A DNA stretch of 32,000 nt from Acholeplasma laidlawii PG-8A (GTDB taxonomy: Bacteria > Bacillota_I > Bacilli_A > Acholeplasmatales > Acholeplasmataceae). This document shows positions 22,160 through 27,495 of the stretch, piece by piece. The position numbers and the translations under genes were made by a program. The notes beneath the pieces are model-generated. The model was not told the DNA's origin. It searched no databases and saw nothing but the letters and a program-made list of their open reading frames with translations. Every line of letters begins with the position of its first letter. Positions within the stretch are counted from its first letter, which is position 1. The stretch is taken from positions 690,001-722,000 of the forward strand of contig NC_010163.1 in the NCBI RefSeq assembly GCF_000018785.1. Direction: 5' to 3'.

Positions 22160-23251
22160 ATGAAGGGTTTATATATCCATATACCATTTTGCGAGTACAT
22201 CTGTCACTATTGTGATTTTGTTAAAAGAGTCCCTAAAAATCAAAATATGATAGATCAATATTTAATTAAATTAAGAGAAGAAATCATGACTTATGAGAGT
22301 CATTTTGATTCTATAGAGACAATCTTTGTTGGTGGAGGAACACCTTCCATGTTAACTGTAGATCAATTAACCTACCTGTTTGACTCGCTTGTAAGAATTA
22401 AACCAGTAGAATTTTCAATTGAACTTAATCCAGAAAGCTACACACATGAAAAAGGTTTAGTATTTAAAAAATATGGCATTAATCGTATATCCATGGGTGT
22501 CCAGAGTTTTGATGATAAAATACTAGCTTATTTAAATAGAGGTCATAAGACAGAACAAGTGTTTTCTATCATAAAAGACTTAAAAGACCTAGGCATCCCT
22601 TATATTTCTATTGACTTAATATTTGCAATACCGGGACAAACCCTAGATCATATTAAGTATGATTTAGAGCAGTTCTTAAAATTGGATATCACACATATTT
22701 CTTATTACTCTCTAATATTAGAAGATAAGACCTATTTTTATCATCAGTATTTAAAAGGTAACTTCAAACCGATGGATGAAGATAATGAAGCTATTATGTA
22801 TGAGTATGTCATGAATTTTTTAACAAATCATGGTTATGATCAATATGAAATAAGCAACTATGCAAAAAATAATCATTATTCACTACACAATAATATCTAT
22901 TGGACATTAGGTGAATATATTGGTGTAGGATTAGGGGCACATGGGTTTATTGATAATTATAGAACATACAATGAACGCGGAATGGGTCAATATATGGATC
23001 ATTTCTTAAAGGAAAAAACACTTCAAACTGAGGATTTAAAACTACAAGATGAACTTATATTTGGCTTAAGATTAACTAAGGGTGTATACATTCCTAGACT
23101 AGAACAAAAATATAAAATAAAATTAACTGAAAAATACCCCCAAATTCATGATAAAATAAAACTAGGATTACTTGAAATTAAAGATGACTATATACGTCTA
23201 ACTAAGGAAGGTACAATGCTTGGTAATCAAGTATTTATGATATTTGTATGA
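22160..23251 (+). CDS. hemW: Radical SAM heme chaperone HemW (HemN-like)
   Basis: 363 aa. CEYICHYCDF is a CxxxCxxC radical SAM motif, and GGGTPS is present. It follows lepA, as in many Firmicutes. Confidence 0.85.
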   Translation: MKGLYIHIPFCEYICHYCDFVKRVPKNQNMIDQYLIKLREEIMTYESHFDSIETIFVGGGTPSMLTVDQLTYLFDSLVRIKPVEFSIELNPESYTHEKGLVFKKYGINRISMGVQSFDDKILAYLNRGHKTEQVFSIIKDLKDLGIPYISIDLIFAIPGQTLDHIKYDLEQFLKLDITHISYYSLILEDKTYFYHQYLKGNFKPMDEDNEAIMYEYVMNFLTNHGYDQYEISNYAKNNHYSLHNNIYWTLGEYIGVGLGAHGFIDNYRTYNERGMGQYMDHFLKEKTLQTEDLKLQDELIFGLRLTKGVYIPRLEQKYKIKLTEKYPQIHDKIKLGLLEIKDDYIRLTKEGTMLGNQVFMIFV

Positions 23252-24153
23252 CCTATTTAATCAAAGATTTTTCTTATTATTTGAATAATGAATTGGGTTT
23301 ATCCAAGAATACCATTGATGCATATATGAGAGATTTAAAGGACTATGAATCTTTCTTAGATAAATATCATAAATTAAAAGATGTAGATAACATTCAATCA
23401 AAGCACATTGAAGGTTATCTTAAAAGTATTAAGAAAAAGGGATTATCTGCTAAAACGATATCTAGAAAACTCACCTCAATTAAATCATTTCATAAGTTTT
23501 TACTGATGGAAAAAGAAGTGGATGAAGATGTTACGCATAAAATTGCTAGACCTAAAATAGAAAAAACTTTACCTACAGTATTAAGTGTAGATGAGGTAAT
23601 TAGTATATTAGAAGTCATAGATAAGTCCACGACATTGGGTTTAAGAAATATGGCATTGCTAGAACTTATATACGGTTCTGGACTGCGTGTTTCTGAATTA
23701 CTTAATATAAAATTAAAGGATATCCATATGCAACAAAGCTATGTTATTGTCACTGGTAAAGGGTCAAAAGAACGTATGGTACCTATATCGGATATGGCAA
23801 TTATAGCAATTAGAAATTATTTAGTTAAGGCTAGAGATGATTTGATTAAGGAAAAAACAGATTATTTATTTATTAATAATCAAGGTAAAACACTTTCACG
23901 TGTAGGCTTTTTTAAAGTCTTAAAAAAGCTTGCAAGCGAAGCAAATTTAGACCCTGAAAAAGTGTCACCACATACCTTAAGGCATTCATTTGCAACACAC
24001 CTTTTAGAGAATGGAATGGATTTAAGAAGTCTTCAAAACCTACTTGGCCATGAAGATATATCGACTACACAAATCTATACACACATCTCACAATCAAGAT
24101 TAAAACAAGTTTATAACAAAACTCATCCAAGAGCAAAGGAGAATAACAAATGA
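23248..24153 (+). CDS. xerD: Tyrosine site-specific recombinase XerD
   Basis: 301 aa with an N-terminal SAM-like domain. Catalytic blocks are GLRVSEL and [38 protein letters not shown]. It shares ATGA overlaps with hemW and deoB. Confidence 0.85.
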
Positions 24154-25343
24154 GATTTAAAAGAGTATTTTTAATCGTCATGGACTCTTTAGGAGTCGGT
24201 GCATCAGAAGATGCAAATCAATATTTTAATGAAGGGGTAGACGATACAAAAGCAAATACGTTTGGTCATATTGCAGAAAGTATGGATCTTAGAATACCTA
24301 ATTTAGAGAAGCTTGGTGTAGGTAATATCATACCTATAAAAGGTACTAAATCAGTTGAATTATCCTCATCTTATGTAACAAAAATTCGTGAAAAATCACT
24401 AGGAAAAGATACGATGACAGGTCATTGGGAAATCATGGGCTTGTATGTTACAACACCATTTCAAACCTTTACAGACACTGGTTTTCCAAAAGAATTACTA
24501 GATGAATTAGAAGAAAGAACCGGACGTAAAATCATCGGTAATATCGCAGCAAGTGGTACTGAAATATTAAAGGATTTAGGTGAAGAACACATGAGGACTG
24601 GAGACTTAATTGTCTACACATCCGCAGACAGTGTACTTCAAATTGCGATGCATGAAGAGATCATTCCTATTGAAGAACAATACAGAATTTCTGCAATTGC
24701 ACGTGACATTACAATGAGACCAGACTGGAAAGTTGGACGTGTAATTACAAGACCATTCTTAGGTACAAATAAGGACAACTTTAAGCGCACAAGTAATAGA
24801 AAAGATTATGCATTAAAACCAAGTGAAGAGACAACTTTAAACTTCCTAAGTGATGCTAATTATGATGTCATCGCACTAGGTAAAATCAATGATATTTTTG
24901 ATGGTTACGGTATCAATAAATACAGTAAAACAGTATCGAATGATGATGGTATGAAACAGATTACAGAGTGGGCTAAAAAAGATTTTACAGGATTATGTTT
25001 CTTAAATCTAGTAGACTTTGATGCACTCTACGGACACCGCAGAGACCCTCATGGATATGGTAAAGCAATCATGGATATGGATAGTCAATTACCTGAATTA
25101 ATGGCTAATTTAAATGAAGATGATTTACTCATTTTAACAGCTGATCATGGTAATGATCCAACCTATGTTGGTACCGATCATACAAGAGAATTTGTACCAA
25201 TGATAGCTTATAGCAAGTCATTTAAATCAGGTGGTAGCCTACCAATACTTAATACATTTGCCGATTTAGGAAGTACAATTTCTGATAACTTTAAAGTCAA
25301 AAAAACAGAGCATGGTGACAGTTTCTTAAGTAAATTAAAATAA
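24150..25343 (+). CDS. deoB: Phosphopentomutase
   Basis: 397 aa. Blocks [37 protein letters not shown] and LTADHGNDP are present. Confidence 0.9.
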
Positions 25344-25370
25344 ATCAATGTTTACTAAATATAAACAAGG
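25342..25370 (+). repeat. Left boundary inverted repeat of the ORF-free island (contains motif ATGTTTACTAAATAT)
   Basis: AAATCAATGTTTACTAAATATAAACAAGG. The reverse complement of 27145-27173 matches at 26 of 29 positions. It starts at the deoB stop codon. Confidence 0.75.
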
Positions 25371-25397
25371 TGTAGAAATACTGCACCTTTTTATTTT
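25367..25397 (+). terminator. Rho-independent terminator of deoB
   Basis: Stem AAGGTGTAG / CTGCACCTT (one G-U pair) with loop AAATA, followed by TTTTATTTT. Confidence 0.7.
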
Positions 25398-25773
25398 GCA
25401 ATAATATGACGAATAAAGTCTGAATGATGTATATAAATATTTTGATAAAATACACTGTGAAACTAGATTTAATATGCTCAACTAAAACACCTAAACAGGA
25501 AAAAGTATACACAAAATTTAACCTTGTTTAAAGGTGGTAAAATCAGCCTAAAAACAAACATACATGAAGCATTGTTGATGATAAAAACGAACGAACAATG
25601 GACTCAATAAGGCCGATTAAAATAGAGAAAATGATGTAAAACGTGTCTAAACTAATAGCAGTTTGAGATGCATGATTATACGTAAAAGTAAAACTCGATT
25701 GCTTAAAATGCGCCTATAAAATTAAACGAAAACTAAATGTTATGAAAAAACAAATTTTAAAATTTCAAAAAAC

Positions 25774-25818
25774 CTATGTTTACTATTTAATGACTCAGTA
25801 TATATTTAGTAAACATAG
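25774..25818. repeat. Inverted pair of the ATGTTTACTA motif (12-bp perfect arms, 21-nt spacer)
   Basis: CTATGTTTACTA ... TAGTAAACATAG. The right arm's reverse complement, ATGTTTACTAAATAT (25802-25816), is identical over 15 nt to 25348-25362. Confidence 0.7.
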
Positions 25819-26136
25819 AATATTTCATGAGGAAACATAAAAAAGAGAAATTTCAGATATGTAGAAGTATTTCAGTAATTTAGTAATTTCCAAAGTAAAG
25901 TTTTAAGTGATCATTTTTATCGACGTAACATGATAGTTATAATTGTTAAAAAGCAAATGCGAAAAAATATAAGCCTTGATATTTCATACTAAGATGATCA
26001 GTTGAAGAGATTTTTAAAAGTATGATTCGATAAATTTATTAGCAGTTCACTATTTAAGTGAGATGAAATTAAACCAATCTTAAGAGTATAATTAATAGCC
26101 TTTATACAATCACACAATGATAATTATAAAACGTAA

Positions 26137-26155
26137 GTTTACCAAATATAAACAA
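26137..26155 (+). repeat. Internal copy of the boundary motif
   Basis: GTTTACCAAATATAAACAA matches 25350-25368 at 18 of 19 positions. It is flanked by the inverted hexamers ACGTAA / TTACGT. Confidence 0.6.
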
Positions 26156-26560
26156 TGTTTAGCGATGTAGTTACGTCGTAAGTGTAAATATTCTGTGTTA
26201 CACATTGATTGGTTGATTGGTAGTTGTAGCTGAAGACCCTTTAACAATGAGTGCATAAAGATGGTAAATGGGTATTGAATTGATAGCGATTGAGATGGAT
26301 ATACATCAGTTAATTAAGTACTCAAACGCTCAAAAATAACCAAACGTTTTTAGTTATTAGTATTGTTATTTACATCAAAATTGAAAGGTTTTGAGTCTCT
26401 GAAGCACCACTAGAGAGATTCGTTCAATATCATCATCTATAACGACGATTTTTAATAGATAAGACGTAACCCGGTTACGGAAGCACTAAATACAAGCAAT
26501 TAATAATTACAACATATCCACACTAACCTTGTTGTCCGCACAGTAAGGCTCACATTAAGT

Positions 26561-26588
26561 GGTTAACATAATATACATTATAGGCACT
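26561..26588 (-). other. dif: dif site (XerC/XerD chromosome dimer resolution site)
   Basis: The minus strand reads AGTGCCTATAA-TGTATA-TTATGTTAACC. 23 of 28 positions equal E. coli dif, including a 19-nt uninterrupted block ATAATGTATATTATGTTAA. It lies in an ORF-free interval between convergent genes, 2.4 kb from xerD. Confidence 0.8.
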
Positions 26589-26945
26589 AATTAATAAATA
26601 AAATAGTGTGGTTCTATCTTTTAAATGGGTATATTAATATATAAATGAGTATGATTAAATCTATAATATACCTATTAATTTACATATAAATATAATCATA
26701 ATATATATATGAGTATAAATAACGTTTTGAAAGTAAGTTTGATAGCATTTCATGTTACTTACGTTGACTAATTATATGTCTCACTCGCTATTAGGCTTAA
26801 AACACGTGATATCATGTTTTTACATGTATCAGATGCTGACGGACTACTACTACTCTTATGATGCTATGTGTGTCATTTATTATCAACTTTGAGAAGTGGT
26901 TAAATCTCATCCATCGATCAAGAGACGGTTGTCCACATCAGACGA

Positions 26946-26988
26946 AAGTAAAGGAGATGAGAAATATCTCTTCCCATCTCCTTTACTT
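26946..26988. other. Strong isolated hairpin (14-bp perfect stem)
   Basis: AAGTAAAGGAGATG / CATCTCCTTTACTT with a 15-nt loop, followed on + by TTAATTT. A second hairpin (CCAGGAT / ATCCTGG plus ACG/CGT) lies at 26998-27042. Confidence 0.6.
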
Positions 26989-27097
26989 AATTTGAATACG
27001 TAACCAGGATCACTTCTTATGCTAAACATATATCCTGGGCGTTTAACTTAAATAAACATTAGTCTATATTTTAAGTTTAATAAAAGTATACTGAATA

Positions 27098-27142
27098 ATT
27101 ATTTACTAAACATTAAGAATTTTGTTAAGTTTAGTAAATAAT
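27098..27142. repeat. Inverted pair of the TTTACTAAAC motif (14-bp perfect arms, 17-nt spacer)
   Basis: ATTATTTACTAAAC ... GTTTAGTAAATAAT. Confidence 0.7.
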
Positions 27143-27144
27143 GT

Positions 27145-27173
27145 CCTAGTTTATAATTGGTAAACATTGATTT
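27145..27173 (-). repeat. Right boundary inverted repeat of the ORF-free island
   Basis: The reverse complement AAATCAATGTTTACCAATTATAAACTAGG matches 25342-25370 at 26 of 29 positions. The 12-bp palindrome TTTACTAGTAAA follows immediately (27174-27185). Confidence 0.75.
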
Positions 27174-27182
27174 TTTACTAGT

Positions 27183-27210
27183 AAATAAAAAAAGTGCTTC
27201 TCAGCACTTT
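27183..27210 (-). terminator. Terminator of the YneF-like gene (potentially bidirectional)
   Basis: 8-bp stem AAAGTGCT / AGCACTTT with loop TCTC. T-runs flank it on both strands. Confidence 0.7.
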
Positions 27211-27214
27211 ATTT

Positions 27215-27433
27215 TTACTTAGTATTTTGTTTCATAGATGCTAGAACTTGTCTAACTTGTTTTTCAGAAGGAGTTCTTCCCATTTGTCTAAACATCTCTC
27301 TAATCGATCTTTCATCCATTGGTGGATTCTTTTCTAAATACTTTTTGAACCAAGCTCTGGCGATAAAAAATCCTGCAACAGCACCAATTAGTAATGCACC
27401 AACTGCGATTGCTATAACCCAATACCATTCCAT
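27215..27433 (-). CDS. UPF0154 (YneF-like) small membrane protein
   Basis: The start is set at MEWYWV because an AAAGGAG RBS lies 9 nt upstream; the track's earlier ATG has no RBS. It has one TM helix followed by KKYLEKNPPMDERSIREMFRQMGRTPSEKQV, typical of the family. Confidence 0.75.
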   Translation of the reverse strand: MEWYWVIAIAVGALLIGAVAGFFIARAWFKKYLEKNPPMDERSIREMFRQMGRTPSEKQVRQVLASMKQNTK

Positions 27434-27495
27434 TAGCGACAACTCCTTTCGTAAGTACATATTCATTTTACTTTATTTCATTATAAATTACAATG

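Follow-up and report, generated by a model that had tools for sequence, protein, structure and literature searches.

The 28-bp sequence at positions 26561-26588 of the window, the 32,000-nucleotide stretch of the Acholeplasma laidlawii PG-8A chromosome analysed here (genome positions 690001-722000 of a single contig of 1,496,992 bp), is very probably the single chromosomal dif of this bacterium, that is, the site at which chromosome dimers would be resolved through the action of XerC, XerD and FtsK. In support of this assignment we directly established the sequence of the site, its uniqueness in the genome, its position at the skew switch, its conservation in relatives, and the presence of intact genes for the three proteins. 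The site itself is not new but a correct re-discovery of a prediction published in 2011. For A. laidlawii PG-8A (NC_010163), Kono et al. 2011 (BMC Genomics 12:19, PMC3025954, Additional file 2), who had arrived at it independently, list the sequence AGTGCCTATAATGTATATTATGTTAACC with a dif position of 716560 and a GC content of 31.928%, and the 28-mer, the coordinate (716560 in their numbering, 716561 in the one-based numbering used here) and the GC content that we obtained all equal this entry. Theirs is the same site, with no difference from ours, and their work was purely computational; our literature search brought up no experiments on Xer or dif in A. laidlawii. Their table, in which A. 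laidlawii is the sole Tenericutes genome of the set, also gives a palindrome map of the site and a distance between dif and the skew shift-point of 0.038 on their scale (PMC3025954). The conserved non-coding architecture around dif, in contrast to the site, is apparently undescribed, and it is here that more could be learned. The dif assignment fixes the terminus of the A. laidlawii chromosome, and should be useful for the annotation and engineering of this species as a model mollicute.

At 26561-26588 the plus strand reads GGTTAACATAATATACATTATAGGCACT, and its reverse complement, on the minus strand, is AGTGCCTATAATGTATATTATGTTAACC, which divides as AGTGCCTATAA-TGTATA-TTATGTTAACC. This is exactly the 11-6-11 reading with a TGTATA centre that an earlier note on this DNA had proposed for the minus strand. 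Read along that strand, the XerC-type arm runs from 26588 to 26578, the centre from 26577 to 26572, and the XerD-type arm from 26571 to 26561, with the arms presumptively assigned to XerC and XerD by analogy to E. coli dif and to B. subtilis. The arms show partial inverted symmetry about the 6-bp centre, and their inner ATAA and TTAT are symmetric. The identities that the same note had counted stood up to recounting: 23 of 28 positions equal E. coli dif (GGTGCGCATAATGTATATTATGTTAAAT), with 19 consecutive identities (positions 8-26) and mismatches at positions 1, 6, 7, 27, and 28, and the XerD arm TTATGTTAACC agrees with the B. subtilis arm TTATGTAAACT at 9 of 11 positions. The A. laidlawii and E. 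coli sites share the TGTATA centre and the 11-6-11 layout, and each species encodes two recombinases together with an FtsK that has a gamma domain. The two sites differ in the outer bases of their arms, and the A. laidlawii site has its XerD arm first on the plus strand. B. subtilis dif (ACTTCCTAGAATATATATTATGTAAACT), which is served by CodV (XerC) and RipX (XerD), matches at 22 of 28 positions. The dif shared by Bacillus anthracis and B. cereus (ACTGCCTATAATATATATTATGTTAACT; Kono 2011, PMC3025954) matches at 25 of 28 positions, including the whole XerD arm except its last base, and differs from the A. laidlawii site in its TATATA centre (TGTATA in A. laidlawii), at position 2, and at that last base.

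Because the genome has 32% GC and other 22/28 sites exist in it, the 23/28 match to E. coli dif, taken alone, carries little weight. An unrelated site at genome position 423,958 matches E. coli dif at 22 of 28 positions, and with B. subtilis dif as the query the candidate (22/28) is tied with a random site at 954,130 (22/28). What places the site beyond chance is its profile score margin, together with its position at the skew switch and its conservation in relatives. For the profile, we took 15 distinct dif sequences of Firmicutes, none of them from Acholeplasma, out of the supplement to Kono et al. 2011, turned them into a position weight matrix, and ran it over the entire genome on both strands. 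The site stands alone at the top, with 29.3 bits against 14.9 for the runner-up (a margin of 14.4 bits; genome-wide mean -36.8, SD 10.3). The next nearest 28-mer in the genome differs from it by 7 mismatches, so that there is a single copy per chromosome, and the profile scan found no second dif-like site in the surrounding spacer, where the best other score, besides the same site on the opposite strand, was 3.2 bits.

To assess conservation we searched 30 related genomes for dif with up to 3 mismatches, using the reversed pattern as a control. Each of the 13 same-genus genomes yielded exactly one copy, as did each of 4 genomes of other genera, while the reversed pattern gave 0 matches in the same 30 genomes. 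Within the genus a 23-base core, CCTATAATGTATATTATGTTAAC, is invariant, and the only positions that vary are the outer 4 of the XerC arm and the last one of the site. The flanking genes are conserved as well, as is the orientation of dif relative to deoB and the YneF-family gene. The core also occurs in 115 stretches of public genomes, which include A. laidlawii 8195, A. granularum, A. oculi, Mollicutes-related lineages, and several other phyla. In 35 of these 115 loci, from diverse organisms, an xerD-like gene lies inside the fetched locus of up to 8 kb, and in one Muribaculaceae locus (L029) about 40 bp separate the end of such a gene from dif. In these lineages, xerD and dif seem to be commonly linked.

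The earlier note had taken the locus for the probable replication terminus, and whole-replicon skew analysis places the switch there. Cumulative GC skew climbs steadily as far as genome position 716,298 (window 26298), 263 bp left of dif, where it has its maximum, and then falls steadily to a minimum at 1,496,930, while cumulative AT skew has its maximum at 716,722 (window 26722), 134 bp right of dif. The site, at genome 716,561-716,588, lies between the two maxima, which flank it closely on either side. A cluster of six relaxed DnaA boxes, of which three are perfect (TTATCCACA), lies at genome 60-206, and since this cluster coincides with the skew minimum, the origin of replication can be placed at position 1. 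The replichores measure 716.6 and 780.4 kb, and dif sits where they meet. As the curve stays flat for about 2 kb, these data place the long-term terminus in the spacer around dif and not on the 28-mer itself; more generally, Kono et al. argue that one cannot conclude from a dif near the skew switch that replication forks end there (PMC3025954). The orientation of genes follows the same division. Long ORFs are biased 515 to 67 toward the plus strand left of dif and 551 to 100 toward the minus strand right of it, and within the window the convergence proposed earlier holds under NCBIfam annotation, with lepA, hemW, xerD, and deoB on the plus strand and the YneF-family gene, rsmD, and pdp (pyrimidine-nucleoside phosphorylase) on the minus strand. 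The accompanying hand tally of bases on the two sides of the site came close to the true counts without being exact (186 G and 156 C on the left, claimed as 183 and 155; 84 G and 82 C on the right, claimed as 86 and 84).

The polarity of a candidate FtsK guide motif also agrees with this terminus. The heptamer GAAGAAG, which we take to be the guide motif reported for Lactococcus lactis, occurs in 532 copies, 92% of which point toward dif, but related purine-rich words behave alike, so that the signal may not be specific. Its cumulative orientation curve peaks at 721,792, 5 kb from dif. In lagging-strand ORFs the density of GAAGAAG is reduced 2.6-fold in the sense direction and raised 10-fold in the antisense direction, which indicates that its polarity tracks replication and not only coding sense. 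Codon usage and strand composition account for part of the polarity, which we count as consistent with dif but not specific to it. The B. subtilis SRS (GAGAAGGG) and the E. coli KOPS (GGGNAGGG), considered as alternative guide motifs, have 8 copies each, too few to be informative.

The genome encodes the proteins that a classical dif would use. Three tyrosine recombinases are present: XerD, a XerC-type protein, and a phage-type integrase. XerD (301 aa; window 23248-24153, plus strand) scores 359.9 bits against TIGR02225, above the cut-off of 329.6, and its gene ends 2,408 bp from the site, in agreement with the 2.4 kb given previously. The XerC-type recombinase (306 aa) is encoded at genome 1,215,010-1,215,894, directly downstream of trmFO, which is also the position of codV in B. 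subtilis; the best model for this protein is XerC, but its 307 bits fall short of the 335 that NCBIfam sets for the XerC equivalog. In an alignment with E. coli XerD (PDB 1A0P), both Xer proteins keep the catalytic R, K, H, R, H, and Y. There is one FtsK, a 693-aa protein with an alpha, a motor, and a gamma domain (PF17854, PF01580, and PF09397). In this respect the wall-less A. laidlawii, with its reduced genome, keeps the full XerC/XerD/FtsK machinery that is lost or altered in many Mollicutes. The earlier note had named three ways in which its reading could fail, through a distant skew extremum, competing 28-mers or a missing XerC partner, and the reading withstood all three. The third tyrosine recombinase, a 317-aa protein of the phage-integrase type, is encoded at genome 617.9-619.7 kb beside repressor-like and antirepressor-like genes, and this locus is probably a prophage or integrative element.

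By analogy to E. coli and B. subtilis, the following sequence of events may be proposed. Homologous recombination would join sister chromosomes into a dimer; XerC would bind the AGTGCCTATAA arm and XerD the TTATGTTAACC arm, and two copies of dif would be synapsed. FtsK at the division site would pump DNA toward dif and, through its gamma domain, activate XerD, after which two sequential pairs of strand exchanges across the 6-bp TGTATA would resolve the dimer to monomers. The pairing of arms with proteins, the dependence on FtsK, and the recombination step are carried over from those two species, and we infer Xer binding, cleavage, and dimer resolution at the A. laidlawii site on the same grounds. 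The single-recombinase systems XerS/difSL of streptococci and XerH/difH of Helicobacter resemble A. laidlawii in that the recombinase gene lies near its site, but they pair one recombinase with a different site, whereas A. laidlawii combines two Xer proteins with a classical dif of 28 bp; on A. laidlawii XerD the XerS model reaches only 130 bits, below its cut-off of 267.

The alternative that survives best, although we consider it improbable, is that the 28-mer is a Xer-binding site with another main role, such as XerD-dependent unloading of SMC complexes at the terminus, dimer resolution being secondary or absent. In B. subtilis, XerD-binding sites have been described as points at which SMC complexes are unloaded at the terminus. 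The location of xerD only 2.4 kb from dif, and of xerD-like genes in 35 of the 115 other dif-core loci, would fit such a role, as would the conserved block on the XerD-arm side, which reaches beyond the 28-mer. However, both arms and the central region are conserved, and not the XerD half alone, and the genome has retained the gamma domain of FtsK as well as a XerC partner whose catalytic residues are intact. The two roles are, moreover, not mutually exclusive, and resolution of dimers at dif remains the reading that we favour.

Both skew maxima and dif lie within a gene-free spacer of 1871 bp (window 25344-27214) between two convergent genes. On its left is deoB (phosphopentomutase; 24150-25343, plus strand; TIGR01696, 545.8 bits), the last gene of the left replichore, with its terminator at 25367-25389, and on its right is the YneF-family gene (27215-27466, minus strand; NF002503, 69.6 bits, below cut-off), the last gene of the right replichore, with its terminator at 27210-27191. 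The spacer had been described as the only large ORF-free interval around the site, and it is in fact the only gap above 600 bp in the window; genome-wide it is the fourth largest ORF-free stretch at a cut-off of 120 aa. It holds no ORF of 60 aa or more that might be a hidden protein gene, and no Rfam family was detected in the window at gathering thresholds. Its length and layout are conserved in 14 Acholeplasma genomes, and alignment identity to PG-8A is 30-45% outside sharp conserved islands.

A spacer of this kind could also be taken for a decayed mobile element that used Xer, with the 28-mer as its attachment or junction site. We regard this as less probable still. The spacer is unusually long for this compact genome, and similar sequences stand in inverted orientation at its two ends, but an integrated element of this kind has two flanking dif-like sites, whereas apart from dif, with its 29.3 bits, no site in the spacer scores above 3.2 bits. 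Every relative has exactly one copy of dif, and a coding remnant was not found in the spacer. The conservation of the layout across the genus and in a second genus implies that the spacer is old and stable, which argues against a mobile element. The remaining and least probable reading, a functionless AT-rich palindrome arising by chance, draws on the 22/28 matches to E. coli or B. subtilis dif that do arise by chance elsewhere in the genome, but it is refuted for practical purposes by the 14.4-bit profile margin, the coincidence with the skew switch, and the invariance of the 23-base core in 14 species against 30-45% conservation of the surrounding spacer.

Four of the conserved islands are 17-bp palindromes of the form GTTTA-N7-TAAAC, which lie on both sides of dif. 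The first, GTTTACTAAATATAAAC (25350-25366), is placed between the deoB stop codon and its terminator, and an exact copy is found at the same offset in 11 of 13 relatives, the other two having one mismatch (L009) and a displaced exact copy (L006). The second, GTTTACCAAATATAAAC (26137-26153), is 424 bp from dif; 10 of 13 relatives have an exact copy at about -410 to -425, and the remaining three have theirs between -354 and -588. On the other side, GTTTAACTTAAATAAAC (27041-27057) is 480 bp from dif, and GTTTATAATTGGTAAAC (27149-27165) lies just past the terminator of the YneF-family gene. The spacer also contains a composite inverted pair, ATGTTTACTA-N21-TAGTAAACAT, at 25776-25818, and a second composite inverted pair near 27075-27113. 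There are 11 exact copies of the palindrome in the genome, and 4 of them fall within the 1.87-kb spacer, where 0.014 would be expected. In the relatives, exact copies stand at about -1215, -415, +475, and +530 to +590 from dif, and each genome has 8-14 copies in total. Three to five of them lie at dif, the farthest out being inside rsmD, and the number of the others approximates the reversed-control count. The same palindrome and spacer layout is found in a second genus of the family. Among the 115 dif-core loci, all 52 exact palindromes are within 1.5 kb of dif, and they occur only in loci with Acholeplasma-type synteny.

Closer to dif, on the side of the XerD-type arm, a DnaA-box-like element, ATATCCACA (26514-26522, plus strand), is located 39 bp from that arm and is followed by a conserved CCGCAC (26535-26540), so that the two elements together span 20-47 bp from the arm. 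The DnaA-box-like element has an invariant TCCACA or CCCACA in 14 genomes and is a perfect TTATCCACA in three species, and both elements are also conserved in other families of the order. Across 111 named dif-core loci the DnaA-box-like element is present on the XerD side in 25, compared with 1 and 0 in the controls. On the side of the XerC arm, the islands at 26620-26725 and 26843-26856 contain a repeated word resembling AATGAGTAT(G/A)ATTAA, with copies 64 bp apart, and a conserved word resembling TTCTTCTACTAC, which is ACTACTACTAC in PG-8A. No pairs were predicted by RNAalifold for a shared RNA structure on the plus strand right of dif (26700-26870).

Judged from their sequences and placement, these spacer features suggest protein-binding sites tied to the terminus. 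We would go further only tentatively, in proposing that dif in Acholeplasma may belong to a conserved terminus module, about 1.9 kb long and free of genes, with at least 4 palindromes at fixed offsets and the DnaA-box-like and CCGCAC elements, in which the palindromes would be sites for a dimeric protein; this is a possible reading, though on balance a doubtful one. If it were true, the palindrome-binding protein might arrest forks, organise the terminus, or assist Xer recombination, and the module would be a terminus system without a described counterpart outside Tus, RTP, and MatP. To our knowledge, a MatP or Tus system is not expected in the Acholeplasma lineage. A fork trap of the RTP/Ter type was considered for the flanking palindromes and rejected, as no RTP was found in the genome (the best match to PF02334 has 14.2 bits, E = 0.06, and falls inside a 388-aa frame); in lacking an RTP homologue match, and in having xerD adjoining dif, A. 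laidlawii differs from B. subtilis. An ordinary transcription-factor regulon is likewise unlikely, since in each genome the number of palindromes outside the spacer approximates that of the reversed control.

Outside the spacer, the only other intergenic pair of palindromes in the genome is in the leader of potA, in a spermidine/putrescine transporter operon (genome 495,103-495,167; L140 3104-3168), where the two copies are situated downstream of a near-consensus promoter and ahead of the start codon. An identical palindrome, with the same spacing to dif, is present in the nearest relative (G002). A PadR-family gene lies about 1.7 kb upstream of the potA pair.
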